Counted from the first letter of the stretch, positions 4,255 through 42,066 are shown. The stretch is 64,000 nucleotides of DNA from an uncultured bacterium (GCA_903855135.1 CAINYB010000007.1:8402-72401), one strand, 5' to 3'. The notes: generated by a model from the sequence alone, not told the origin. Translations and numbers: made by a program.

Positions 4255-5619
4255 TTACTTATTAGCTAATAAGAAACTGCCGATGGCAATGTCTAAATAA
4301 TCTTTTATTTTGGTTAAAAATTGTAACTGCTGAGCAGATAAAAACTTCTGTTTAGCATCAATCATCACTAATCCTAATAACTGTTGATTATAAAAAATCG
4401 GTAAAGCAAAATCAATTTTTTGTTTCTCCATAGACTCTGCCAGATAATGATCAGTCTGCAAATACTGAATTTCCGCTTTATTAGCACCTTCTGGATGTTG
4501 ACCTAAAAATTGTAATAATTGACTATCTTTTAAGACTAATAATCTTTCTCCTACTGGATAAACTTGATGAAAAACTTCACTGTTATTATGTTTCGCTAAA
4601 TAAACAAACAAATCTTGATAATCAATCACCTGAGCAATGACTTTGGCTAAACGAGAAAATAAAATATTTAAGTCCGCTCCAGAACGCAAAACATCAGCTA
4701 CTTGTTCGACACTTAATTCAATCTTTTGTTGTGGATTAAAGAAAAAATAATTTAAAAATTTATAAATCGCCTGATAAACTAAAGGTGAGCTAAAACCAAT
4801 CAAAAGTACAAAAGACAATTGATTAGACAAAACCATAAAGTCTATTTTGACAAAACGCAAAAGTGAGATAAATAAAAAGTAAAAAACAAACAGCGTGCTA
4901 AAAAAAGCTATTAAATCCAAAGCCGTCTTTAAAAATAGTTGTTTTAAATCCCAAAATCGATAGCGAGCTAAAGCATAAACTAACACTAGAGTAAAAAATA
5001 CCGCGCTATCTACCCCTAAATAAAATAAATTTTTTAAGCCAAATAATGGCAAAACTACACTAAATAATAAAGCGAAAGTAGCCGTCAAGGCAGTGCCAAA
5101 AAAAAGATAAGAAATTTGTTTACGGACGATCAAATTTACTCTTTTGCTCATTTTAGCCAAAAATGTCAAAGCAAAACCAATCACTAGTAAAAAATAAGCT
5201 AAAAAATAATAATACAAAACTTCTTGCTGGAAAACAAAGCCGTGTTCAGTGACCGTCACACTGCTGATGTTATAGTCAGAAAATAAGAAAGGAATCATCA
5301 GCACCGCTGGTAGCCAGACCAAAATTTTGGTATAGTGCTTCACTATTTGGCAACGATCGCATAAAGAAAAAACCAGCCACAAAAAGGCTGGAGCAATAAA
5401 TAAATTAGGTAATAAACCAAAACGAGCACCCAATAATAGATAGTCAGTAAAGCGTAAAAAAAGAACATTTATCAGCTCAATACTCTGCCACAAGGTCACC
5501 AAAACAATCAATAAAAGGACGGGTAAACGATGTTTTTGTTGTTTATTGAAGGCAACAAAAACCACTAATATCAAATTAATTACCCAGGCACAAATTAAGA
5601 TTAAATTAGCTAAAGTCAT
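4255..5619 (-). CDS. Polytopic membrane protein with C-terminal soluble (GAF-like?) domain
   Basis: 454 aa; about 8 hydrophobic helices then a soluble C-terminal third; promoter TTGACA-17-TATGAT upstream at about 5650-5690 on the minus strand. Confidence 0.35.
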   Translation of the reverse strand: MTLANLILICAWVINLILVVFVAFNKQQKHRLPVLLLIVLVTLWQSIELINVLFLRFTDYLLLGARFGLLPNLFIAPAFLWLVFSLCDRCQIVKHYTKILVWLPAVLMIPFLFSDYNISSVTVTEHGFVFQQEVLYYYFLAYFLLVIGFALTFLAKMSKRVNLIVRKQISYLFFGTALTATFALLFSVVLPLFGLKNLFYLGVDSAVFFTLVLVYALARYRFWDLKQLFLKTALDLIAFFSTLFVFYFLFISLLRFVKIDFMVLSNQLSFVLLIGFSSPLVYQAIYKFLNYFFFNPQQKIELSVEQVADVLRSGADLNILFSRLAKVIAQVIDYQDLFVYLAKHNNSEVFHQVYPVGERLLVLKDSQLLQFLGQHPEGANKAEIQYLQTDHYLAESMEKQKIDFALPIFYNQQLLGLVMIDAKQKFLSAQQLQFLTKIKDYLDIAIGSFLLANK

Positions 5620-7213: not shown

Positions 7214-7798
7214 ATGAACAAATGGGACCAAATATTTACTACTAATCCACAATACAAACCATTAAATGAAATTTTTTTGGCTGAATTATTAGAAAAAATT
7301 AAAAAAGAAACTAATCCTAATCCCAAAAAAATGATTGATCTTGGTTGTGGCACAGCAAAAACGGTTCTGCAATTCTCAAAACTTGGTTTTGAAGTGACTG
7401 GTTTAGACAATTCTATAGTGGCTTTAAAAAAATTACAAGAAGAAATTGATAATTCTAAAGAACAAAATATCACCTTAATAAACGCTGATTTAAATAATTA
7501 TAACCTTACTTTAGAAGCTGACATTTTTCTATGTAATTTTGTATATGCATTTATAGATAATAAAGAATTCTTTCTCAAAGAAGTGGCTGAATGTTTACGT
7601 GATGATTCTGTATTTATCTTAATAACACCGGTGATACATAAAGAAATAATTTACACGGAAGAAGATAAAACTAAAATTGCTGTAGATTTTGAAGAAACTT
7701 TAAAATTATTAAAAAATATTTTTTCTAGCGTTGATGTTTATCATCATGACTATATTGGTACTAGAGAAGATTATGTAACATTTCTCATTAAAAAATAA
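7214..7798 (+). CDS. Class I SAM-dependent methyltransferase
   Basis: 194 aa; motif I LGCGTAKTVLQF and acidic loop GLDNS typical of the Rossmann MTase fold. Confidence 0.65.
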   Translation: MNKWDQIFTTNPQYKPLNEIFLAELLEKIKKETNPNPKKMIDLGCGTAKTVLQFSKLGFEVTGLDNSIVALKKLQEEIDNSKEQNITLINADLNNYNLTLEADIFLCNFVYAFIDNKEFFLKEVAECLRDDSVFILITPVIHKEIIYTEEDKTKIAVDFEETLKLLKNIFSSVDVYHHDYIGTREDYVTFLIKK

Positions 7799-7811: not shown

Positions 7812-8515
7812 TTATAAAAATTCTACCATACTAACAATCCAATGTTTTACATCTGGATTTTTTTTCCATAAAATTTTACCAAGATTAATCAACTTCGTAT
7901 GATTTGGATAACCCAAATTTTTTATTTTGCCATGCAACTTAACAAAATCATCAGAATCTTGAATGACAACATTAAAAACTTCTGCCAAATCCCAAAATAC
8001 CCCCTCTTCCGTATTTAAATGTTTAAAATTTTTAGGAAAAATTTTTATCGCAAAATCATAAAAAATGAAATGAAGCATTTCGTGAAAAATTGTAAAAAGT
8101 TGCATTTTTTTATTATCATAAAGAAATACTTGAAAACTACCATCCTCTAAAAAACGTGGGCAAAAATCAAATATGGAAAAAAGCCGGTGAATTTATTTTT
8201 TGGCCAAGGATAATTATTAAAAATTTTATCAACTACATAAAAAAAATCATTTTGTGATTTATCAAGATAGACAGAAGTTTTTTTACTAAGTTTCTCTAAT
8301 TCATCAAAATGAGAATTATAAAATTCAACAATATATTTATTTAAAAAAACCTTAGCATTTTTAACAGCTTTAATTTCTAAAAGTTTTGGATGATGACGCA
8401 AGGCTCTTTCTTGCCAAAAATTACAACCACCAATTTCTTGATGATTAAAAAACTCCCAAGCTAATTCTTGATCTAATTTTTGATTAAATTTTAGTTTTAT
8501 GACTGAATTAGACAT
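7812..8515 (-). pseudogene. Possible split/frameshifted gene; the downstream half carries an HExxH motif
   Basis: Two same-strand ORFs (8147..8515 and 7812..8105) separated by 41 nt; the second begins MQLFTIFHEMLHFIF (HEMLH). Confidence 0.3.
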
Positions 8516-8595: not shown

Positions 8596-9390
8596 ATGAT
8601 TATCGATAGTCACCTTCATATTTCATATTTAAAAAAACAAAAAACTTTTACAACAATTAAGCGTGATTTGTTGAATTTAATGACTAAAAATAAAGTTGAT
8701 TATGCTATTGTCATACCAGATAACGTTCCCAACCCTCAATGTGCTGACCTTGATGAACTTAGTAAATTAGTCAAAAATGAAAAAAAACTATTTATGATAG
8801 CTACCTTAGCGATCACTAAAATTAATAAAAGCAACCTAGCTCGTATTGACACCATGTTTAAGGAAAAAGAAGCTATTGGCTTTAAAATTTTTCCAGGCCA
8901 TGATCCAATCTACCCTACTGATAAACGTTGGCTACCTATTATTTTATTATGCCAAAAATATAAATTACCCTTTATAATTCATACGGGAGTAAATAGTGGT
9001 CATCCAGAAGTAGCTAAATATAATGACCCAAAATATATTCGGGACTTAGCTTTAAAATTTCCAAAATTAAAAATAATCATTGCTCATTATTTTTGGCCTA
9101 AGCTTGACTATTGTTTTGAAATGACCGAAGGTTTGCCTAATGTATACTTTGATACTTCTGCTCTAGCTGATCCAGAAGTAATAAAAGATAGTGGAGGTAT
9201 CAAAAAAATTAAAGATATTTTAGTTAAAACTATTAAACGTAGACAAGATAGTATTATTTATGGCACAGATTGGCCTATTTGTAGTTTTGAAAAGCATATT
9301 AATTTGATTAAAGCTTTACCAATCAGTAATGAATTAAAAAAAGACATCTTTTTTAGAAACTCTCTAAAACTTTTTCCAATTAAAAAATAA
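8596..9390 (+). CDS. Amidohydrolase-family (TIM-barrel metal-dependent hydrolase) protein
   Basis: 264 aa; N-terminal IIDSHLHIS metal-binding His pair; internal His and Asp positions consistent with amidohydrolase_2. Confidence 0.55.
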   Translation: MIIDSHLHISYLKKQKTFTTIKRDLLNLMTKNKVDYAIVIPDNVPNPQCADLDELSKLVKNEKKLFMIATLAITKINKSNLARIDTMFKEKEAIGFKIFPGHDPIYPTDKRWLPIILLCQKYKLPFIIHTGVNSGHPEVAKYNDPKYIRDLALKFPKLKIIIAHYFWPKLDYCFEMTEGLPNVYFDTSALADPEVIKDSGGIKKIKDILVKTIKRRQDSIIYGTDWPICSFEKHINLIKALPISNELKKDIFFRNSLKLFPIKK

Positions 9391-9439
9391 TTTAAAAAGG
9401 CTGATGGCATCGAATCGCAATGATTCAACTCCATCAGCC
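9383..9439 (-). terminator. Intrinsic terminator of the radical-SAM operon
   Basis: 9-bp stem ggctgatgg/ccatcagcc (9399-9439) followed on the minus strand by the U-run TTTTTAAATTATTTTTTAATT. Confidence 0.6.
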
Positions 9440-9455
9440 CCGAACTCTCTACCAG

Positions 9456-9587
9456 TTACTTCTTGGTGCTGGGAGAGGGTGTGGTGGTGGTTGGCTTGAC
9501 AGCCGGTGCTTCGCTGGCGTCAGATTTCTTCTTGACGCTGAGCTTTTCCACCTTTTGGCTGTCCATCACAGCCTTACATTTGCTCAT
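9456..9587 (-). CDS. Small ORF (43 aa, Lys/Thr/Pro-rich) translationally coupled to the upstream gene; candidate precursor peptide or small basic protein
   Basis: Not in the ORF track (<60 aa). Its ATG overlaps the TGA of the YkgJ-like gene (ATGA); AGGAG lies 8 nt upstream; peptide MSKCKAVMDSQKVEKLSVKKKSDASEAPAVKPTTTTPSPSTKK; lies inside the operon before its terminator. Confidence 0.35.
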   Translation of the reverse strand: MSKCKAVMDSQKVEKLSVKKKSDASEAPAVKPTTTTPSPSTKK

Positions 9588-10159
9588 GGCCGTTTCTCCT
9601 TTCTGTTTGGCCTGATGTCCTGCAGACAAGCAAGAGTCAGGTAGCGGTTAGAGCCTTCTGGAAACTTAGTAATGTCGTCAACAGATTGAAAGGTCTTGAT
9701 GACGACTGCAAAGAGCGAGTGGGTCATCCTTTGTATCAATTTAATAGCGCTTTGTTTGAAAACTTCATTATCTTGATGCTCATTAGCGAATTGACAATCC
9801 AAATGGAGCACTAAATAAACCTTACCATCTTCGCTAATGAAATTCAATGGATAGAGCCTACAGACCAATGGACGAATTTGATGTATGGTACAGAGACGAT
9901 TTAAACAAAGCGGACAAGGTGGTTTGACCTGTTCAATGTTGATCGGTTGACCACCAGAAAAGGGGTTAATGAAGTTGATACCGTCGTTGACTTCAAGCAA
10001 CGAGACACCAGCTTCGAATAGAACATCTGCTTCTGCCGGTAAAAGCCACATATACCCCTTACAATCTTCATCGTGGCAATTCTGACAGACAGTACTGATG
10101 CCCACCAACAACTCATCTAGGGCGACGTAAAGTTCGTCGATGGTTTTGATTCTTTTCAT
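9584..10159 (-). CDS. Cys-rich metal-binding protein, YkgJ/UPF0153-like (CxxCxxCC-type zinc/iron-chelating domain)
   Basis: Start revised to ATG 10159 (MKRIKT), giving 191 aa. AGGAG 6 nt upstream; the stop of the rSAM gene overlaps this start. Motifs CQNCHDEDC and CTIHQIRPLVCRLYP resemble the C.IY..RP..CR.FP block of the YkgJ family. Confidence 0.5.
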   Translation of the reverse strand: MKRIKTIDELYVALDELLVGISTVCQNCHDEDCKGYMWLLPAEADVLFEAGVSLLEVNDGINFINPFSGGQPINIEQVKPPCPLCLNRLCTIHQIRPLVCRLYPLNFISEDGKVYLVLHLDCQFANEHQDNEVFKQSAIKLIQRMTHSLFAVVIKTFQSVDDITKFPEGSNRYLTLACLQDIRPNRKEKRP

Positions 10160-11070
10160 CAGTTGCTCCTCTCCAAAAGCATTGGGCATGGGGAATTTGT
10201 ATTCAGACAAAATGAGATGTCTATACCAGTGTAGGTTTGGTAACAACAAAAAGTTGGAGAACACACCGTTGCCGGTTGTGCTAAGGTTTCTAGTTGGTGC
10301 CAGCTCTTCTGTTCAGTTATGTCAGCTAAATACAAGTCCGGCTTTGTGACGCCAGCTTCAGAACAAGCATAGACTAGGCCTTCGGCGCTTAAGTAGACCG
10401 ATGACAAATCAACTGTACACCTAATGTCAGGTTTTGATTTTTGGGTCATGCTACTAGCGAACTGACGTAGAATAGCTTGCTGATTGTGACTGAGTGCAAA
10501 CAAGTCTAATGACAACCTAGCCCGGCCAGCTAGGTTGATTTCAGAGACATGGACAAAGCTTGCTCCTAAGTGTCTAGCTAATTTAATTATCTTGTCCAGT
10601 TCGTAGTAGTTAACTGCCGAAACGGTGATATAAACCGAAACAGGAAGACTAGCGGACAACAAAGCAATTGCCTGGCAGACCTTATTAAAACTACCGAGCC
10701 CTCGAATTTTATCATGAGTTGCAGCTGAGGCGCCATCGAGACTGACGCCGATTGATTGAAGACAATTGGTTAATTTTCTGGCCTTAGAACCATCAATCAG
10801 CCAACCATTCGTGAGTAGTCCGATGTTGTCTATGCCAAATGCGTGGGCATGATTCAGGAGTTCAAATAGGTCTTGACGCATCAACGGTTCACCGCCAGTA
10901 ATCAGGAGTCTTTGCGCACCGAGTTGAATCATGTCTCCAATTGCTTGTTTGGCTTGTTTGGTAGTTAGACTGCGGCCACCGGAGTGGCCGCAGTCAGTTA
11001 TGCAATGGCGGCATAGGAGATTGCAGAGTCTTGTGATCTCCCAATGCCATTCATGGAAATGGTTTGACAC
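10159..11070 (-). CDS. Radical SAM/SPASM-domain enzyme (peptide-modifying maturase-like)
   Basis: 303 aa; CNLLCRHC = Cx3Cx2C near the N-terminus; C-terminal Cys cluster (CSPTFCCY...C...C) typical of the SPASM auxiliary Fe-S domain. Confidence 0.8.
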   Translation of the reverse strand: MSNHFHEWHWEITRLCNLLCRHCITDCGHSGGRSLTTKQAKQAIGDMIQLGAQRLLITGGEPLMRQDLFELLNHAHAFGIDNIGLLTNGWLIDGSKARKLTNCLQSIGVSLDGASAATHDKIRGLGSFNKVCQAIALLSASLPVSVYITVSAVNYYELDKIIKLARHLGASFVHVSEINLAGRARLSLDLFALSHNQQAILRQFASSMTQKSKPDIRCTVDLSSVYLSAEGLVYACSEAGVTKPDLYLADITEQKSWHQLETLAQPATVCSPTFCCYQTYTGIDISFCLNTNSPCPMLLERSN

Positions 11071-11089
11071 TGCAGTTGCCTCCTGTTCG

Positions 11090-12385
11090 TTAGACCGCTT
11101 TTAGAGCATTGACTGCAATCAACTTGCTGACCAATGATCGTATTTCTGGTTCGCTAACAAAATCCAAAAAGGCCGCTATCAACTCAGCTTCATCACATTC
11201 AGCTTGAGTGATAATGTGCTGGATGATTCTGGCTGTAAGTTCGTCAAGTTGAATGGTTTGATAACGAGTTACTAGATAGACTTCGGCGTGAAAACTATTG
11301 AGCTTGGTGAAAGTGTCAGGGACTAATCGGCGATATTCAGTAGTAAAAGTTTCCGGTAAGTCCAGCGGTTCCGGCAGTCTATTGACAATCGGCTGACGCA
11401 AATTTGGATTTTCGCGGATAGCGTAATCAATACAAAAACCCGTCGAGCAACTACAATCGACTTTGCAGCCACAAAGGCAATCGGTGACAACTGGACATGA
11501 CAAACATGGTTCAGTCACCCAAGACAGTTTTCTAAACTCATCAAGTTGGCTTTTTGCCCAGATTTTTTGGATTGGTTCATCTAGGATATTGCCGTAGATA
11601 ATCTCTGATTGATTGCAAATGCGAACATCTCCATCAGGGTTGATTGCAGCAAAAGTGATGCCCACGCCACAATTAGCAGTCATTCTTTCTGACAGCAGTC
11701 GATTGTCTAGACAGTATGGTATAGCCGTGCCAAAACCAACAGCAATACCAAAGTCATCACGAGCCCGAATCATCTGACTCAACGCGACTTTGAATTGCTC
11801 AAGAGAAGGTTTCAACTCAGTGGAACTTTGGCTACCCAAACCACCATCTTCAAATCGATCGACGAAAACAGATTCCATGCCTAACTGATGGGCCTTAGCA
11901 ATGATGTTGTAGATCTGATCGTAGTTCCAGGCGGTTAAAACCGGGATACATCGGACATCAAAACCAGCAGCTACATAACTCTCAATAGTTCTGATGGTTT
12001 GCTTGTATCCACCAAAACGTCGAGTGTGCCGCTCGTGTACACCCTCATCACCATGAAGTGGTACTCCAATACAGGCTAATTTATTTGACAAATCAATCAG
12101 ATTGCGGACTCCGTTAGTAACAATGGTAACAGAAGAACGTTGAGCTAGAAGCTCAATGTATTCGTTAAGCTGCCTCACTCCAAGTAACGATGGTTCTCCA
12201 CCAATAAGATAGACGTGAGGAACCCATGATTCGTAAATGGAATGAACAATTCTGTCCATTTTAGTCTTGTTAAAAGGTTGCTCTCGTCTTGGGTTGTAAC
12301 AAAACACACAGTTGCAGTTGCAACCGTACGTAGTTTCAATGTGGACGAGGTGAGGAACACTCGGTATCTCTAGTTTTTGCATCAT
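11090..12385 (-). CDS. Radical SAM/SPASM-domain enzyme with ~100-aa C-terminal extension
   Basis: 431 aa; TYGCNCNCVFCYN (Cx3Cx2C); SPASM Cys cluster CLSCPVVTDCLCGCKVDCSC. Confidence 0.8.
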   Translation of the reverse strand: MMQKLEIPSVPHLVHIETTYGCNCNCVFCYNPRREQPFNKTKMDRIVHSIYESWVPHVYLIGGEPSLLGVRQLNEYIELLAQRSSVTIVTNGVRNLIDLSNKLACIGVPLHGDEGVHERHTRRFGGYKQTIRTIESYVAAGFDVRCIPVLTAWNYDQIYNIIAKAHQLGMESVFVDRFEDGGLGSQSSTELKPSLEQFKVALSQMIRARDDFGIAVGFGTAIPYCLDNRLLSERMTANCGVGITFAAINPDGDVRICNQSEIIYGNILDEPIQKIWAKSQLDEFRKLSWVTEPCLSCPVVTDCLCGCKVDCSCSTGFCIDYAIRENPNLRQPIVNRLPEPLDLPETFTTEYRRLVPDTFTKLNSFHAEVYLVTRYQTIQLDELTARIIQHIITQAECDEAELIAAFLDFVSEPEIRSLVSKLIAVNALKAV

Positions 12386-12389
12386 GCAC

Positions 12390-12695
12390 CTACCTTCTTG
12401 GGTTTTGAGCTATTTGTAAAATAGCCTCAAATGAATCTTTTGCTGACGCTCGGTTACGCTTGCTTACTTTGCAACGAGTGCAATGATGTGTGATGATATA
12501 GCCATCGGATTTGTTCTCAATTGAAATCGGCTCCATCAGACCACCGCACTGGTTTTCGCGATCACCAGGATCATTGTCAACATGCTTACTGTAAAGGCAG
12601 CTTGGACAATGGTTAGTGTACCCATCGCCTGTAACTTGCGTTCCACAGTGTTCACATGTGAAGTTCTCCTGGCGACGTGTAAAACGTTTTGCCAC
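12390..12695 (-). CDS. RNHCP-type double zinc-ribbon protein
   Basis: Start revised to GTG 12695, giving 101 aa. AAGGAGG 7 nt upstream. Two CxxC...CxxC ribbons (CEHC/CPSC and C...CTRC) with an NHCP motif (YTNHCPSC) as in the RNHCP domain family. Confidence 0.55.
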   Translation of the reverse strand: MAKRFTRRQENFTCEHCGTQVTGDGYTNHCPSCLYSKHVDNDPGDRENQCGGLMEPISIENKSDGYIITHHCTRCKVSKRNRASAKDSFEAILQIAQNPRR

Positions 12696-12775
12696 TATGC
12701 TGCCTCCTTTTTTGTCAATGAACTCCACAGCCGTCTTTCTTCAAAGCCGTCTTTGAATTTCAATACGGCTGTCAT
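12695..12775 (-). CDS. Leader mini-ORF (26 aa), possibly leaderless, stop overlapping the RNHCP start (TAGTG)
   Basis: The ATG lies 7 nt after the -10 hexamer; peptide MTAVLKFKDGFEERRLWSSLTKKEAA; the region also forms an inverted repeat cagccgt...acggctg, so it may be a structured leader instead. Confidence 0.2.
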   Translation of the reverse strand: MTAVLKFKDGFEERRLWSSLTKKEAA

Positions 12776-12782
12776 TAATTTA

Positions 12783-12810
12783 ATTATACTCTTTTATAAA
12801 TTTGTGTCAA
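12783..12810 (-). promoter_or_regulatory. sigma70-type promoter of the radical-SAM operon (TTGACA-16-TATAAT)
   Basis: Minus-strand TTGACA at 12810..12805 and TATAAT at 12788..12783; it abuts the upstream terminator hairpin. Confidence 0.6.
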
Positions 12811-12842
12811 GAAAACACCTCCCGCCTATGGCGGGAGGTGTT
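12800..12842 (-). terminator. Intrinsic terminator of the ABC exporter operon (palindromic, also usable on the + strand)
   Basis: Perfect 12-bp stem acacctcccgcc/ggcgggaggtgt with a tatg loop, followed on the minus strand by GTTTTCTT. Confidence 0.6.
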
Positions 12843-12894
12843 TTGAAGATGACGTCAACGATCAATTAAACAATTGATTAAACTAAAAATTTTT

Positions 12895-13713
12895 CTAACT
12901 CCTAATATTAATCAAATTACCACTAGAATATTTTTTTAATCCCCTATTATAAATAAAGATAGTTATGATAAAAAAGATAATACTAAAAATAACAACATAA
13001 ATAAATTTGTCTAAAGCAAAAGTTTGTAATAGCTCGGCTGGTAAAAAAGTAGCAAAGCCAGCAGGAATGACAAAGAAAATAAAAAATTTTAAAAAACCCT
13101 GTACTACTGAAGATGGATTACTAGAAAAAGCAATAAAAGCATGCATGAGATTATTATGTAATACTTCATTACGACCAAGCCAAAAGCTTAATGATCCAAC
13201 TAGAATATAAAAACTTAATAAAATTAAACTAGAAAAAAACCAACCGACTATCAACCAAACACATGAATATAAGGTAAGAGGAAAAAATAAGACAAAAGCT
13301 AATAAAGCAAATATCAAGTCACCCCAAGCGGACAAATCAGTTTTACTTACCAGGGCATGCAAAAGATGATTTTTAGGAAAAGTAAAATAAAAATCTAAAC
13401 CACCATTACTAATTATTTTACCTAAATTATTAGCATTACCAAAAATAGCATTTACCCAACCAAAGCTACCAGCAGCAAAAATCCAAATAGCGATCATTTC
13501 CTGAAAACCAAAACCATTGAGCTTACCAAAGTGTTCAAAGAAAAAATACCATAACAGCAAAAACATCGTATCATTGATGATCATAAAAAATACCTGACTA
13601 AAAAAATTGAAACGAAACTCCATCGCTGAAGCGAGGTTATATTTGGTGTAAAATAAAACAAAATCAAAATTTTTAGCCACCGTTGATATTAACTTTTTTG
13701 ATTCCTTGAGCAT
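12895..13713 (-). CDS. ABC-2 family transporter permease
   Basis: 272 aa; 6 predicted transmembrane helices; overlaps the upstream permease by 41 nt. Confidence 0.55.
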   Translation of the reverse strand: MLKESKKLISTVAKNFDFVLFYTKYNLASAMEFRFNFFSQVFFMIINDTMFLLLWYFFFEHFGKLNGFGFQEMIAIWIFAAGSFGWVNAIFGNANNLGKIISNGGLDFYFTFPKNHLLHALVSKTDLSAWGDLIFALLAFVLFFPLTLYSCVWLIVGWFFSSLILLSFYILVGSLSFWLGRNEVLHNNLMHAFIAFSSNPSSVVQGFLKFFIFFVIPAGFATFLPAELLQTFALDKFIYVVIFSIIFFIITIFIYNRGLKKYSSGNLINIRS

Positions 13714-14494
13714 AAACTATTTTAATTAAAACTATAAAAATAAAAATCCAAATTGTTTGCCTGAGCACTAAAGCCTGCCAGTAAGCTAAATCAAAATTCA
13801 CAAATGTTCTCGCTGGCCCATATAAAATACCTTCAAATGGTAAATAATGGAGAATTTTTTGTAAAAATATTGGGTAAACATCTAGTGGAAATAATAAACC
13901 CCCACCAATAAAAAGTATTTTTTGGTAAATAAAACGCATCGAATCTACATCCTCTACCCAAAAAGCTAACAAGCTACACGTAGCCGAAACTAGAAAATTT
14001 AAAACTAAAGCTAAGATAATAGCTATGATCACCGCAAAAATAATAAACAAATTTAAACTTGGTAATTTAATAAAACAGATTAAAACCAAAACTCCAACAA
14101 ATAATTTAGTAATAAAATTTATAAAAGTCTTGCCTAAAATCGAGCCAAAATAATAACCCACAAAACTATAAGGCTTCGCCAAAGCATAGGCAACATTGCC
14201 ACTTTTTATTTCTTCACCAATTTCCCCGATAATACTAGGATTAGACGTCAAAATGAGCTCTGTCATAAATACATACCAAATCATTCCTGCCAGACTAAAG
14301 CCTGAGATGATTTTGTCTGGCTGATTAGCATATACCACTCGCCACACACCACTCATCACTAAGGTAATCAGTAAAATAAAAATATTGGAATACAACAATT
14401 CTAAAGGATAGGCCAATCTGTCCATCACAGAGACCTTGAAAATGCTAAAATATTTATTTAATTTTCTGTAAATTTTGTTCATAGATATTAGCAA
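13673..14494 (-). CDS. ABC-2 family transporter permease
   Basis: 273 aa; polytopic; overlaps the ATPase gene by 41 nt. Confidence 0.55.
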   Translation of the reverse strand: MLISMNKIYRKLNKYFSIFKVSVMDRLAYPLELLYSNIFILLITLVMSGVWRVVYANQPDKIISGFSLAGMIWYVFMTELILTSNPSIIGEIGEEIKSGNVAYALAKPYSFVGYYFGSILGKTFINFITKLFVGVLVLICFIKLPSLNLFIIFAVIIAIILALVLNFLVSATCSLLAFWVEDVDSMRFIYQKILFIGGGLLFPLDVYPIFLQKILHYLPFEGILYGPARTFVNFDLAYWQALVLRQTIWIFIFIVLIKIVYAQGIKKVNINGG

Positions 14495-15455
14495 TTATTT
14501 CTTCCATCGGCATTTCAGCAATAGTAATATCGGCTATTTGGTAAATATTTAATAATTTATCTATCACTTCTTTGACGCTAATTTTTTTAATATCAACTTC
14601 TAGTTTTAAACTTAGTTTATCTTGAGCTAAAATTTTCACGCCTCTTAAATTTAATTTTTCACTGGCATGATTATCAGCTAACTCTAAATCAATCAATTTA
14701 TACCAAGCATATTTATCTTTAAAATTTTTGACTGTGCCATCAAAAATGACCCTACCCCTATCAATGACAATTACTCTATCCGCAATCTTCTCTAGATCAC
14801 CAGCATCATGAGAAGTGATAAAAATTGTTGTCTCCTCTTCTTTGTTCATCAAATTTAAAACTTCTCTGAGCTGTTGTTTGGCTACCACATCCAAACCGAT
14901 AGTTGGTTCGTCTAAAAATAATATTTTTGGCTGGTGGATCAAAGATGCGATCATTTCGCAACGCATTCTTTGTCCTAAAGATAATTTTCTTACTGGTTGA
15001 TTGACAAACTCCCTAACTTGAAATTTATCGATCAAAAAATTTAAACGCTTTTGAAATTTAGCTTGATCAAGCTCATAAATCTTGCCAAATAAATAAAAAG
15101 TATCCATCGCTGGCAAGTGATACCAGAGCTGTGGCTTTTGTCCAAACACTGTGCCGATTTTAAAAGCCAACTTTTTTCTATCTTGCCAAGGCACTAAATT
15201 ATCAACTCTAATCTCACCAGAGCTAGGATACAAAATACCAGTCAACATTTTTATAGTCGTTGACTTACCAGCACCATTTGGACCAATAAAAGCAACTTTC
15301 TCACCTTTAGCCACGCTAAAGCTGATATTATCCACTGCTTTCATCTGTTGATATTCTGGCTTAAACAAAGCTTTCAAACTATTACGAAAACCACTTAACT
15401 TGATTTTGCTAGTAAACTCTTTGTTTAAATTTTTCACTTCAATAATCTTTTCCAT
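14454..15455 (-). CDS. ABC transporter ATP-binding protein with C-terminal extension
   Basis: Walker A GPNGAGKST, ABC signature LSLGQRMR, Walker B ILFLDEP, H-loop ITSHD; about 100-aa extra C-terminal domain. Confidence 0.85.
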   Translation of the reverse strand: MEKIIEVKNLNKEFTSKIKLSGFRNSLKALFKPEYQQMKAVDNISFSVAKGEKVAFIGPNGAGKSTTIKMLTGILYPSSGEIRVDNLVPWQDRKKLAFKIGTVFGQKPQLWYHLPAMDTFYLFGKIYELDQAKFQKRLNFLIDKFQVREFVNQPVRKLSLGQRMRCEMIASLIHQPKILFLDEPTIGLDVVAKQQLREVLNLMNKEEETTIFITSHDAGDLEKIADRVIVIDRGRVIFDGTVKNFKDKYAWYKLIDLELADNHASEKLNLRGVKILAQDKLSLKLEVDIKKISVKEVIDKLLNIYQIADITIAEMPMEEIIANIYEQNLQKIK

Positions 15456-39311: not shown

Positions 39312-40628
39312 ATGTTTAACAAAAAAATTATTTCTTTTAGTCTTTTTGTGCTAACTTTAGTTTTTGCTTGGCAAGTAAACACTAAGTTAATTTTTGCACA
39401 AAGCGATGATACGACTAGCAACACTACTACTATCACTGAAGTCAGTAGTGATGATCTAGATATTAGTAACGAAGAAATCAAAGCACCAGGTGATGCTGGC
39501 TATTGGTGGAGTAAATTTAAACTTAGCACCAAAATTTTACTTACTACTAATGCTGTCAAAAAAGATGAATTAAAACTAAAGCAAGCTAATTTAGAATTAT
39601 TAGCGGCTAAAAAATTAGCGGAAAATAATCCTGATACAAATTTACAGGAAAAACTAAATGAAGCTTTAAAAAAATATCAAGCTAAAATGAACAAGGTAGA
39701 AGAAAAAATCAATACTTTGCCAGCTGAAAAAAAAGCTGAATTAATAAAAAAGCTTGATGAACAAACCTTAAAACAACAAGAAATTTTACGTAATTTAGGG
39801 TCTAAATTACCAGAAGAAGCTAAGACTAAAATAGAAACTTTACGAAAAGAACGTATCAATGCTTGGTACGAAAAAAATAAAACTAATCTAGAGCAAAGAT
39901 TGACTGCGGCAGCTGATGTTACTGATCAAGCAGATAGATTAGCTGGCTTAAAAGCCATGGCTAATCTAGAAGACCTCAAAGATGCTCTACCAGCTGAAGC
40001 AAGTTCTGAAATCGAAGCTACGCAAAATAAAACTCGCGATAGATTGATTGAAAAATTAAAAAATATTTCTGAACAGGAAAAAGAAAAAGTTAGTAAATAT
40101 TTACAAGAAGTAAAATTAACTGATGTCCAAAAAATCAAATTAACCGAAACTCTATCTTCAGCCCCACAAGGATCTGTTTTAAGCACCGAAGCTATCCAGA
40201 CTAAAGCATCTTTAATGGCTAAACTCAAAGAAAAATTTAATAGTTTAGATGATAGTCAAAAAGAAAAATTTTTACAACAAAATATCAACACTGGCCAAAA
40301 TGCTGAAGCTGTCAAAATCAAAATTATCAATGAACTAAGATCAGAAGCTTCTAGCGAACTAAAAACTAAACTAGAAAAATTAAAAATAGAACAACAAGAA
40401 CAACTAAAAGAAAGAATTAAAAAAATAGATGATAGTGACGATTTGGATGAATTAGAAGATGATAGTAGAAATTTGCCAATCATCAAAAAAGAAATGGAAG
40501 CAAAAAAATTAGAACTTCTTAAAAAAGAAAGAGAAAACAACCGTGAAGCTGAAAAACAAAGATTAGAAATTTTAAAGAAAAAACAAGAGTTAGAACGTGA
40601 ACGCTTAAAACAACGAAACGAAGACTAA
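39312..40628 (+). CDS. Secreted Lys/Glu-rich coiled-coil protein
   Basis: N-terminal signal/TM; low-complexity KE-rich repeats; terminator 40634-40670. Confidence 0.4.
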   Translation: MFNKKIISFSLFVLTLVFAWQVNTKLIFAQSDDTTSNTTTITEVSSDDLDISNEEIKAPGDAGYWWSKFKLSTKILLTTNAVKKDELKLKQANLELLAAKKLAENNPDTNLQEKLNEALKKYQAKMNKVEEKINTLPAEKKAELIKKLDEQTLKQQEILRNLGSKLPEEAKTKIETLRKERINAWYEKNKTNLEQRLTAAADVTDQADRLAGLKAMANLEDLKDALPAEASSEIEATQNKTRDRLIEKLKNISEQEKEKVSKYLQEVKLTDVQKIKLTETLSSAPQGSVLSTEAIQTKASLMAKLKEKFNSLDDSQKEKFLQQNINTGQNAEAVKIKIINELRSEASSELKTKLEKLKIEQQEQLKERIKKIDDSDDLDELEDDSRNLPIIKKEMEAKKLELLKKERENNREAEKQRLEILKKKQELERERLKQRNED

Positions 40629-40737: not shown

Positions 40738-42066
40738 ATGAAAGATAAAAAATTCCATTTAATAGTCTTTGGCTGCCAGATGAATATCTCTGACGCCGAA
40801 CGTCTAGCTACCACCTTAAAATCTCTGGGCTACCAAGAAACAGATAATGAGGCTGATGCTGACTTGATCGGCGTAGTGGCTTGTTCGGTCAAACAAACAG
40901 CTGTGGACAGAATATATGGCAAAGTGCACAATTGGCAACTCGTCAAAGAAAAAAGACCACTGATCACTATGCTGTCTGGCTGTGTGCTTGATTATGATCG
41001 CCAGAAATTACAAGATAAATTTGATATTTTTCTAGACATCAAAAAGCTAGATACTCTAGCTGAAGAAATAAAAAAAGCAGCCCCAGAGGAAAAATTAGCC
41101 CTGCCCAGCTTCTTTGACATCAAGCCTAGCTATTATTCTAGCTACCGCGCTTATGTACCTATTATGACTGGCTGTAACAAATTTTGCTCTTACTGCGCTG
41201 TGCCATATACTCGTGGCCGAGAAGTATCTAGACCAAGTGCTAGTATTATCTCTGAAATAAAAGAATTATTAGAAAAAGGTTACAAAGAGATAATTTTGCT
41301 AGGTCAAAATGTAAATTCTTATGGCTTGGATAAAGCTTCCGCCAGAGGCGGATCCGCCTCTGGCGGAGGCGAAGAAGAATTAAATTTTCCACAATTATTA
41401 AAACAAATTGATAACTTAGGCGATCATTTTTGGCTAAAATTTTTAACTTCTCATCCTTATGACATGTCTGATGAATTAATTGAAGTCATGAAGCATGGTG
41501 AAAATATCAATCACTATTTACATTTACCAGTCCAGTCAGGCTCTGATGAGATATTAAAAAAAATGAATCGCCACTACTCTATCGAACATTATACGGAATT
41601 AATAAAAAAAATCCGTACTGCCCTACCAGATGTCTCCATCTCTACTGACTTAATCGTCGGCTTTGCTGGTGAGACAGAAGCTGATTTCAAAGTTACAGAA
41701 AAATTAGTTCGCGATTTAAAATTTAATTTATCTTTTACTTCACAATACTCACAAAGAACTGGCACAGTAGCAGCTAAACTTTATCCTGATGATGTATCAC
41801 AAGAAACCAAAAAAGAACGTTTTAATATCGTCAATAACCAAATCGGAAAAAATGCTAAACTATATAATCAAACTTTAGTAGGAAAAACTTTTGAAGCTTT
41901 GATTGATGTCGTAAATTGTGAAGAAAAAAAATGTAAAAATATTGGTAAACTAGCCAACTATACTGCTGTGCATGTGATCACCAAAGAGCCACTCAAAGTT
42001 GGCGGGTTTTATCAAGTGAAAATAACTCAAGCTGATGCTTGGGGAGTTTTGGCAAATTTAACATAA
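40738..42066 (+). CDS. miaB: tRNA methylthiotransferase (MiaB-like radical SAM MTTase)
   Basis: MTTase N-domain; CNKFCSYC (Cx3Cx2C); TRAM-like C-terminus; adjacent to miaA; Gly/Ser-rich insert ASARGGSASGGG. Confidence 0.75.
   Translation: MKDKKFHLIVFGCQMNISDAERLATTLKSLGYQETDNEADADLIGVVACSVKQTAVDRIYGKVHNWQLVKEKRPLITMLSGCVLDYDRQKLQDKFDIFLDIKKLDTLAEEIKKAAPEEKLALPSFFDIKPSYYSSYRAYVPIMTGCNKFCSYCAVPYTRGREVSRPSASIISEIKELLEKGYKEIILLGQNVNSYGLDKASARGGSASGGGEEELNFPQLLKQIDNLGDHFWLKFLTSHPYDMSDELIEVMKHGENINHYLHLPVQSGSDEILKKMNRHYSIEHYTELIKKIRTALPDVSISTDLIVGFAGETEADFKVTEKLVRDLKFNLSFTSQYSQRTGTVAAKLYPDDVSQETKKERFNIVNNQIGKNAKLYNQTLVGKTFEALIDVVNCEEKKCKNIGKLANYTAVHVITKEPLKVGGFYQVKITQADAWGVLANLT

Follow-up and report, generated by a model that had tools for sequence, protein, structure and literature searches.

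A recurrent gene cassette of ultra-small bacteria and archaea, with two radical-SAM enzymes, an RNHCP protein and a YkgJ-type protein, as a candidate peptide-maturation pathway

Peptide maturation by radical S-adenosylmethionine (SAM) enzymes is a known kind of system, and several of its described representatives come close to the locus analyzed here. PapB, which forms ranthipeptide thioethers, and QhpD, which forms those of the QhpC type, are radical-SAM/SPASM enzymes acting on a ribosomal peptide. Mycofactocin (MftA/B/C) and pyrroloquinoline quinone (PQQ; PqqA/D/E) depend on a short, highly conserved precursor, on a radical-SAM/SPASM enzyme and on a module of the type of the recognition element (RRE) of peptides made by the ribosome and modified after translation (RiPPs), and they have no exporter. 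In the His-Xaa-Ser (HxsB/HxsC) and SynChlorMet (ScmE/ScmF) systems, two tandem radical-SAM genes lie beside a small peptide gene. In this work, we analyzed a 64,000-nucleotide stretch of DNA from an uncultured bacterium (GCA_903855135.1 CAINYB010000007.1:8402-72401), hereafter the window. On its minus strand, from 12810 to 9383, it carries a compact operon of five tightly packed genes (~3.3 kb) between a consensus promoter and a strong terminator, which an earlier note, made from the sequence alone, had described as a self-contained candidate peptide-modification system. We refer to the operon as the cassette and to its genes, in order of transcription, as R, A, B, Y and p:

12783..12810, minus strand: sigma-70-type promoter, TTGACA-16-TATAAT, 12/12 consensus positions matched
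12696..12776, minus strand: 5' untranslated region (UTR) of ~80 nt, containing a 26-aa open reading frame (ORF) that is not conserved, together with a hairpin and a tandem repeat of 16 nt
12390..12695, minus strand: R, RNHCP-domain protein (PF12647) of 101 aa, with a GTG start at 12695 behind AGGAGG
11090..12385, minus strand: A, radical-SAM/SPASM enzyme of 431 aa (Pfam Radical_SAM and SPASM)
10159..11070, minus strand: B, radical-SAM enzyme of 303 aa (PF04055, E 9e-21) with a twitch-like C-terminal domain
9584..10159, minus strand: Y, 191-aa member of the YkgJ/CxxCxxCC superfamily, with a cysteine cluster (weak PF03692 match)
9456..9587, minus strand: p, candidate precursor peptide of 43 aa, a conserved small ORF reading MSKCKAVMDSQKVEKLSVKKK followed by a variable tail
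9383..9441, minus strand: intrinsic terminator, a long hairpin followed by U5, with an inverted repeat at 9399-9439

All the elements on which the proposal of a single minus-strand transcription unit had been based are present, including the complete promoter match and the terminator hairpin, which folds with -29.9 kcal/mol (z -4.6) and whose stability was reached by none of 200 shuffled sequences. Read from the sequence, the junctions are TAGTG, 4 nt, 19 nt, TGATG and ATGA; the three overlaps are as previously given, whereas the two gaps had been put at 5 and 20 nt. With junctions that are all tight or overlapping, the cassette genes are translationally coupled. As regards their function, we consider it probable, at roughly 70%, that they form a peptide-maturation pathway in which p is the substrate and the core to be modified lies at its N-terminus, a reading that comes from comparative sequence analysis and whose grounds are presented below.

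The proposal of a self-contained peptide-modification operon is supported. A scan of genome contigs, with one genome per species, gave 57 loci; when the window proteins were mapped onto them, the gene order R-A-B-Y-p was found repeatedly, and the RNHCP protein, the YkgJ-like protein and the trailing ORF turned out to be co-conserved with the radical-SAM genes. Specifically, (i) p was found in 52 loci, and all loci not cut by a contig end have it, (ii) Y is kept at every locus with enough downstream sequence, (iii) R was found at 46 loci, directly upstream of A, and seven loci that extend far enough upstream to judge lack it, six of these being from DPANN archaea, and (iv) B is missing from about 10 loci. 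In the DPANN loci the p gene is relocated to just upstream of A, yet it is retained, and in bacteria and archaea alike p, A and Y stay together. Natural fusions join R to A (L002, L004 and P0023), A to B (L013, L014 and L024, in addition to proteins of ~722 aa among the homologs of A), B to Y (~16 loci) and A to Y (L028 and P0019). The homologs of A number in the hundreds, at 53-67% identity.

The small peptide itself is the key finding. Its residues 1-21 follow the consensus MSKCKAVLDSxK[VI]xx[IL]xVKxK, in which no variation occurs at M1, S2, K3, C4 and D9 among the 49 tabulated copies, and almost none at K5, A6, K12, positions 13 and 16, V18 and K21; four copies with a looser pattern (L030, L036, L041 and L050) also keep S2, K3, C4 and D9. 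Ser2 is encoded by all six serine codons, and K3, C4 and D9 each by both of theirs. Since synonymous codons vary at these invariant positions, selection acts at the level of the protein, where residues 1-21 are under strong purifying selection. In most copies a strong Shine-Dalgarno sequence lies 5-9 nt upstream, which, together with the synonymous-codon variation, makes it very likely that the ORF is translated; the start codon is GTG in L041 and in four other copies and TTG in the second copy of L030. Beyond residue 21, length and composition are hypervariable: p ranges from 21 to 56 aa, the tail is mostly Lys-rich and in two archaeal copies acidic, and the shortest of the copies compared (L039) is exactly the 21-aa unit. 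Because the shortest copy ends there and the tails vary from Lys-rich to acidic, the conserved N-terminus is the functional part of p. The p family is effectively unannotated: none of the gene sets examined calls p as a gene, a collection of ~15 billion proteins does not contain the window sequence, and a phmmer search of 1.84 billion representative proteins returned a single match.

Two loci depart from this pattern. L030 has two tandem peptide genes, at 7863 and 8041 (plus strand), which begin MSKCKSSLDQNK and LSKCLPILDAEK, respectively. The L002 peptide, at 7843 (plus strand), is only 12 residues long (MSKCKAVMDSKK), too short to include the putative recognition strand discussed below; it may be a pseudogene or an assembly error.

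Three substrates had been suggested for the radical-SAM enzymes. The trailing 43-aa peptide survives as a candidate, although what is conserved in it are the first 21 residues and not the T/P/S tract that had drawn attention to it; as p is hypervariable after residue 21, the TTTTPSPST tract sits in the dispensable tail, and it was rejected as the core given that the shortest homolog stops before reaching it. The 26-aa ORF upstream of R was also rejected, both as a gene and as a substrate: in the 57 loci it has no homolog outside the same organism, and it is part of the 5' UTR. The third suggestion, that the Cys-rich RNHCP protein R is itself cross-linked or modified by A and B, deserves a closer look in view of its position directly upstream of A at 46 loci, its fusion to A in some of them and its seven invariant cysteines. 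R is an unequivocal member of its family (103 bits on PF12647, cutoff 24), with a mean identity of ~55%, the motif T-N-H-C-P in the window protein (N28, H29 and C30 invariant, P31 nearly so), and a SKHVDxxPGDR loop conserved along with the cysteines, H29 and H38. This Cys/His pattern, however, fits structural metal sites. Moreover, RNHCP genes encoding proteins 55-63% identical to the window R occur in isolation in the Alphaproteobacteria Tistlia and Fodinicurvata and in other bacteria (L059, L061 and L062-L066), with no conserved neighbours. Outside the candidate phyla radiation (CPR), all four look-ups of RNHCP proteins about 60% identical showed an isolated gene without a radical-SAM neighbour, and R is absent from the seven loci mentioned above, most DPANN copies among them. 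Since isolated genes occur elsewhere, the RNHCP domain would have a general role independent of the cassette and, as equally similar proteins stand alone, R looks like a general small metalloprotein recruited by the cassette. That R could be the substrate, as once proposed, is most improbable.

The two radical-SAM enzymes are of different build. In A (PF04055, E 1e-13), the CX3CX2C cysteines C22, C26 and C29 are invariant in 29 sequences, and the SPASM motif, defined by the seven-Cys pattern CX9-15GX4C ... CX2CX5CX3C ... C, is complete (PF13186, E 5.5e-10), with C239-G252-C257 and C294/C297/C303/C307 invariant. In B, the radical-SAM motif C16/C20/C23 is conserved and the conserved C-terminal residues are C218-x12-G231-x4-C236, C275 and C295, while a Pfam scan gave no SPASM match; because only four C-terminal cysteines are conserved, B would have a twitch-like domain with one auxiliary cluster rather than a full SPASM domain. 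The description of the pair as twin SPASM enzymes thus applies to A but not to B. An AlphaFold2 model of A (predicted local distance difference test score, pLDDT, 80.6; predicted template modelling score 0.85) contains a further C-terminal domain, ~residues 345-431, whose segment 350-431 is predicted with pLDDT > 90 and shows four strands followed by three helices, the order found in RREs; the modelled domain resembles an RRE or a winged helix. A profile search of this domain against the PDB gave no sequence match. Structurally, the neighbours of A are enzymes that mature peptides or proteins.

Neither enzyme fits a curated family. We compared both with the NCBIfam models for MftC, PqqE, HxsB/C, ScmE/F, PapB, AlbA, SkfB, QhpD, anSME and AhbD/NirJ, and no model reached its cutoff, the scores being far below throughout; the best were MftC for A (72.6 bits, cutoff 265) and AhbD for B (121.6 bits, cutoff 500). 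That the closest models for B are AhbD, NirJ and MoaA-type enzymes would be in line with a substrate other than a peptide (a tetrapyrrole, sugar, nucleotide or lipid), with p a basic mini-protein of unrelated function (for instance a regulator or a binder of nucleic acids) that simply travels along with the operon; the weak matches of A and B to prokaryotic viperin models and the Lys-rich tail of most copies of p, reminiscent of nucleic-acid-binding peptides, could be seen in the same way. However, the AhbD/NirJ/MoaA-type scores far below their cutoffs reflect the generic radical-SAM core only, the structural neighbours of A point to a peptide or protein, acidic tails of p exist, and p is not only retained at all loci but also co-varies with the presence of B, as described below. 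We therefore regard a non-peptide substrate as very unlikely. A defence function by way of a prokaryotic viperin was likewise rejected, since the PADLOC pVip models match only the generic radical-SAM core (E 1e-20 to 1e-7, with partial coverage); R, Y and p gave no match to PADLOC models.

The covariation concerns position 6 of p, which is Ala in 42/42 loci with B and in only 3/10 loci without it, where Pro, Ser, Gly or Thr takes its place in the other seven (Fisher p = 9e-7, an optimistic value because the loci are phylogenetically related). The loci without B are interspersed among those with B in the tree of A. This is the pattern expected if B acts at or beside Ala6.

As for Y, its orthologs place it, by profile matches, in the YkgJ/CxxCxxCC superfamily: 20 out of 20 match PF03692 at E <= 0.1 (best 6.6e-7), and 4 of the 20 match DUF3109. 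Seven cysteines are invariant (C25, C28, C33, C82, C90, C100 and C122), and the N-terminal motif is a literal CxxCxxCC in the orthologs from DPANN archaea and Dojkabacteria and CxxCx4C in the others. A PDB profile search with Y found nothing. Two relatives have been characterized, and both are methyltransferases acting on primary amines. FliB, whose Cys motif is related to that of Y, is a [4Fe-4S]- and SAM-dependent lysine N-methyltransferase of flagellin (PMC8598068), and DpdM, a DUF3109 protein and YkgJ homolog, N-methylates preQ1 (PMC10516641).

On these grounds we propose the following sequence of events, each step of which is put forward conditionally. Residues ~12-20 of p (K-[VI]-x-x-[IL]-x-V-K), which have a beta-strand-like pattern, would dock on A, at its RRE-like C-terminal domain, so that the core would lie N-terminal to its recognition element, the latter acting like a follower peptide. 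A, with its two SPASM auxiliary clusters, would carry out radical chemistry on the core SKCKAVLDS, most likely linking Cys4 to Asp9 by a thioether. The C-x4-D spacing of p comes close to the CX3D motifs known from PapA and to the Cys...Asp/Glu rings known from QhpC. The thioether is our best guess because PapB and QhpD set a precedent for Cys-to-Asp links and because Cys4 and Asp9 are the only invariant reactive side chains of the core; still, by analogy with these systems we can offer it only as a tentative assignment, possible rather than probable. B, with its single auxiliary cluster, would act at Ala6 or adjacent to it, through epimerization or a second cross-link, for instance, and Y, as a relative of FliB and DpdM, would N-methylate K3, K5, K12 or the N-terminus. 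R would serve as a recruited metal-binding partner, in electron transfer, metal supply or as a scaffold. Finally, optional neighbours (an amidohydrolase, class-I methyltransferases, B12-dependent and third radical-SAM enzymes, an enzyme dependent on pyridoxal phosphate (PLP), and a GNAT acetyltransferase) would tailor or release the product, a RiPP or otherwise peptide-derived, which could be either the intact modified peptide or a small molecule excised from it.

Several points weigh against this interpretation. First, every reaction has been assigned by analogy. Second, the RRE assignment in A comes from predicted topology alone: the Pfam PqqD model matched 2 of 18 members at E ~0.09, and the profile of A aligned with a PqqD sequence in the expected register, though not significantly. 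Besides, the window Y scores 20.5 bits on PF03692, below the cutoff of 23, and R is without a structural relative and without an assignable role. In addition, the loci lacking B are not phylogenetically independent, so that the Fisher value overstates the evidence from position 6. Finally, the core of the cassette contains neither a protease nor an exporter by which the product could be released.

Two neighbouring genes of the window may be accessory to the cassette:

8596..9390, plus strand: Amidohydro_2 protein (PF04909, E 1e-24), candidate accessory gene, convergent with the cassette
7214..7798, plus strand: class-I SAM methyltransferase (Pfam methyltransferase domains), possibly accessory, weakly linked to the cassette

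The amidohydrolase had been treated as a mere flank, but it is co-located with the cassette at 14 other loci, where its homologs (38-66% identity) adjoin it. In the window its GC content is host-like (0.29), and in all 14 loci having both, the GC content of the amidohydrolase is below that of the cassette. The methyltransferase of the window is 24-31% identical to methyltransferases found beside the cassette at at least eight loci. Altogether, class-I SAM methyltransferases adjoin it at nine loci, with a second type at six, mostly of Woesearchaeota; a third radical-SAM gene does so at seven loci, and a B12-binding radical-SAM gene and a GNAT acetyltransferase at five each. At six loci (L012-L015, L019 and L024), belonging to Dojkabacteria, some Saccharibacteria and one Woesearchaeota, a PLP-dependent aminotransferase-like gene of ~390 aa lies between B and Y; in the Dojkabacteria, p is on the opposite strand, upstream of R. 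None of the accessory genes reaches a curated cutoff in NCBIfam. No protease, exporter or immunity gene conserved across the cassette loci was found, and the ABC-2 transporter of the window (12895-15455) was rejected as an exporter, its operon having its own terminator and not being conserved at the other loci.

Such a neighbourhood raises the question of whether p is a scaffold, cross-linked and tailored at its N-terminus, from which a small molecule, for instance a redox cofactor akin to PQQ or mycofactocin, is released by the amidohydrolase or by a housekeeping peptidase. The Amidohydro_2 protein of the 14 loci, the methyltransferases and the PLP enzyme appear suited to small-molecule tailoring, conserved exporter or immunity genes were not found, A comes closest in NCBIfam to the mycofactocin maturase and PqqE, and the core is extremely conserved in two domains of life, unlike those of antibiotic RiPPs. 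Nevertheless, the amidohydrolase is present at only about a quarter of the loci (14/57), PF04909 enzymes are not known to be peptidases, and the cassette core contains no peptidase. Neither was any co-conserved cofactor-using oxidoreductase found among the loci, and the core has no aromatic or other obvious redox-active residue. We consider such a cofactor route unlikely in comparison with what we propose, namely a peptide-maturation pathway acting on the N-terminus of p, whatever form its product takes.

The cassette belongs to organisms of a particular kind. Nearly all of the 57 loci are from Patescibacteria (CPR) or DPANN archaea, the former comprising Saccharibacteria (L016, L022 and L054, for example), Nealson-, Staskawicz-, Magasanik-, Dojka-, Berkel-, Gracili- and Gottesmanbacteria and Microgenomates, and the latter, with several loci, Woesearchaeota and Nanoarchaeota; the exceptions are one Firmicutes CAG:822 and a few bins of doubtful assignment. 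The enzymes are 50-65% identical between the bacterial and archaeal lineages. In a neighbour-joining tree of A, calculated without support values, the DPANN copies occupy at least two to three positions among the CPR clades, which suggests that the cassette has been transferred between the two domains of life. The host of the window, judged by proteins that share 90%-identity clusters with GW2011_GWA2_36_10, is a Parcubacteria-group CPR bacterium, and the window also holds ordinary housekeeping genes (DnaE, Mfd, ThrRS, LigA, GatA/B and CysRS). We found no description of the cassette in the literature on RNHCP, on YkgJ with radical SAM, or on CPR/Patescibacteria with RiPP; by the curated libraries and the searched literature, the system of these ultra-small bacteria and archaea is previously undescribed, in agreement with the earlier note.

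The higher GC content that the note had perceived by eye was borne out by calculation, with 0.445 in the cassette against 0.345 in the rest of the window, and likewise at third codon positions (0.39-0.45 in the cassette genes and 0.68 in p, against 0.19-0.32 in host genes). Across loci, the GC content of the cassette is above that of its flanks in 34/49 cases, with a median excess of 4 points and a maximum of 15; either repeated transfer from GC-richer donors or a constraint on composition may account for the excess. The composition makes horizontal acquisition plausible in the window, but it does not demonstrate it. Signs of a mobile element were not seen: no integrase or other mobility genes and no flanking direct repeats were found at the window cassette, and all contigs with the same amidohydrolase also have the cassette, so that no empty site was found. 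A phage origin was rejected, as a scan of viral contigs gave only unrelated radical-SAM proteins (~24% identity).

Some features of the locus bear on its control. The 16-nt tandem repeat of the 5' UTR (12723-12754), which reads AAAGACGGCTTTGAAG / AAAGACGGCTGTGGAG on the mRNA strand, lies within the hairpin, which folds with -22.6 kcal/mol (z -2.4). A search of the 5' UTR against Rfam gave no match. Repeat and hairpin could constitute an operator or a regulatory leader. Upstream, the ABC-2 operon ends in a terminator (12812-12844), a GC-rich hairpin of 15 perfectly paired bp with a T-run behind it, which abuts the -35 box of the cassette; it was not detected by a consensus terminator scan. A HisKA_7TM histidine kinase is encoded less than 6 kb from the cassette at eight loci (L005, L007, L012, L022, L026, L029, L036 and L040), and a response regulator near it at five; the window also has a HisKA_7TM kinase (4255-5619, minus strand). 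The cassette may be regulated by a two-component system, or its product may be sensed by one. Between the methyltransferase and the amidohydrolase of the window lie two minus-strand ORFs of 97 aa (7812-8105) and 122 aa (8147-8515); neither has a homolog in the other loci, and the latter has no Pfam match either. Elsewhere in the window, a DUF5667 protein (39312-40628, plus strand) and a MiaB-like radical-SAM methylthiotransferase (UPF0004 and Radical_SAM; 40738-42066, plus strand) are ordinary host genes for which no link to the cassette was found.

The biosynthetic capacity of CPR bacteria and DPANN archaea is minimal, and knowledge of any specialized molecules they make is very scarce. A nearly invariant precursor core suggests a conserved role, within or between cells, and not a variable antibiotic, and the gene for it is invisible to current gene callers. 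It is tempting to speculate, although we think it improbable, that the cassette makes an unknown peptide-derived cofactor or signalling molecule, specific to ultra-small episymbiotic prokaryotes, built on the invariant N-terminal SKCKAVLD core by three different Fe-S SAM-dependent enzymes, and that the cassette has been exchanged between domains. On this reading, Y would be the first [4Fe-4S] methyltransferase of the FliB/DpdM type known in a RiPP pathway, and radical-SAM enzymes would have in RNHCP a dedicated partner of a new type, for metal or electron transfer. In any case, the cassette provides the first testable functional context for the orphan RNHCP domain and for the poorly understood YkgJ superfamily.

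It remains to set the cassette beside the systems named at the outset. With PapB and QhpD it shares a radical-SAM/SPASM enzyme on a ribosomal peptide, although A scores only 37 bits against PapB (cutoff 340) and 35 bits against QhpD (cutoff 453), p has a single Cys where their substrates have several, its core is N-terminal, and the cassette adds Y, B and R. With mycofactocin and PQQ it has in common the short, highly conserved precursor, the radical-SAM/SPASM enzyme and the lack of an exporter, and the RRE-type module may have a counterpart in the predicted RRE-like domain fused to the C-terminus of A. These two systems are the best NCBIfam similarities of A (73 and 65 bits, cutoffs 265 and 381), but the modified residues would be at the N-terminus of p, and the cassette has neither homologs of MftD/E/F or PqqB/C nor a dedicated peptidase in its core, nor could we find a co-conserved oxidoreductase. 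The tandem arrangement of two radical-SAM genes beside a small peptide gene recalls HxsB/HxsC and ScmE/ScmF; here again the scores are low (HxsC 54.5 bits, cutoff 268; ScmF 46 and 84 bits; ScmE 74 bits, cutoff 400), the precursor motif is another, B has one auxiliary cluster, and the RNHCP and YkgJ-type genes are unique to the cassette. Y shares with FliB and DpdM the N-terminal Cys motif and further conserved cysteines, and p is rich in invariant Lys; however, Y is distantly related to both, the window protein falling below the Pfam cutoff, and its coupling or fusion to radical-SAM enzymes has not been reported for FliB or DpdM. As regards SkfB, SuiB, CteB and ChlB, RiPP radical-SAM maturases of characterized structure, the sequence identity of A is 15-18%. 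The RRE is N-terminal in SuiB, CteB and SkfB, whereas the RRE-like domain predicted in A is C-terminal. The cassette brings together enzyme types not previously seen in one system: its SPASM enzyme carries an RRE-like domain at the C-terminus, and beside it stand a radical-SAM enzyme of the twitch type, a homolog of Fe-S methyltransferases such as FliB, and an RNHCP protein. What would be new with respect to all these systems is the precursor family, the gene composition of RNHCP, FliB-like protein and twitch-type radical-SAM enzyme, the N-terminal core followed by a C-terminal recognition segment, and the restriction to CPR bacteria and DPANN archaea.

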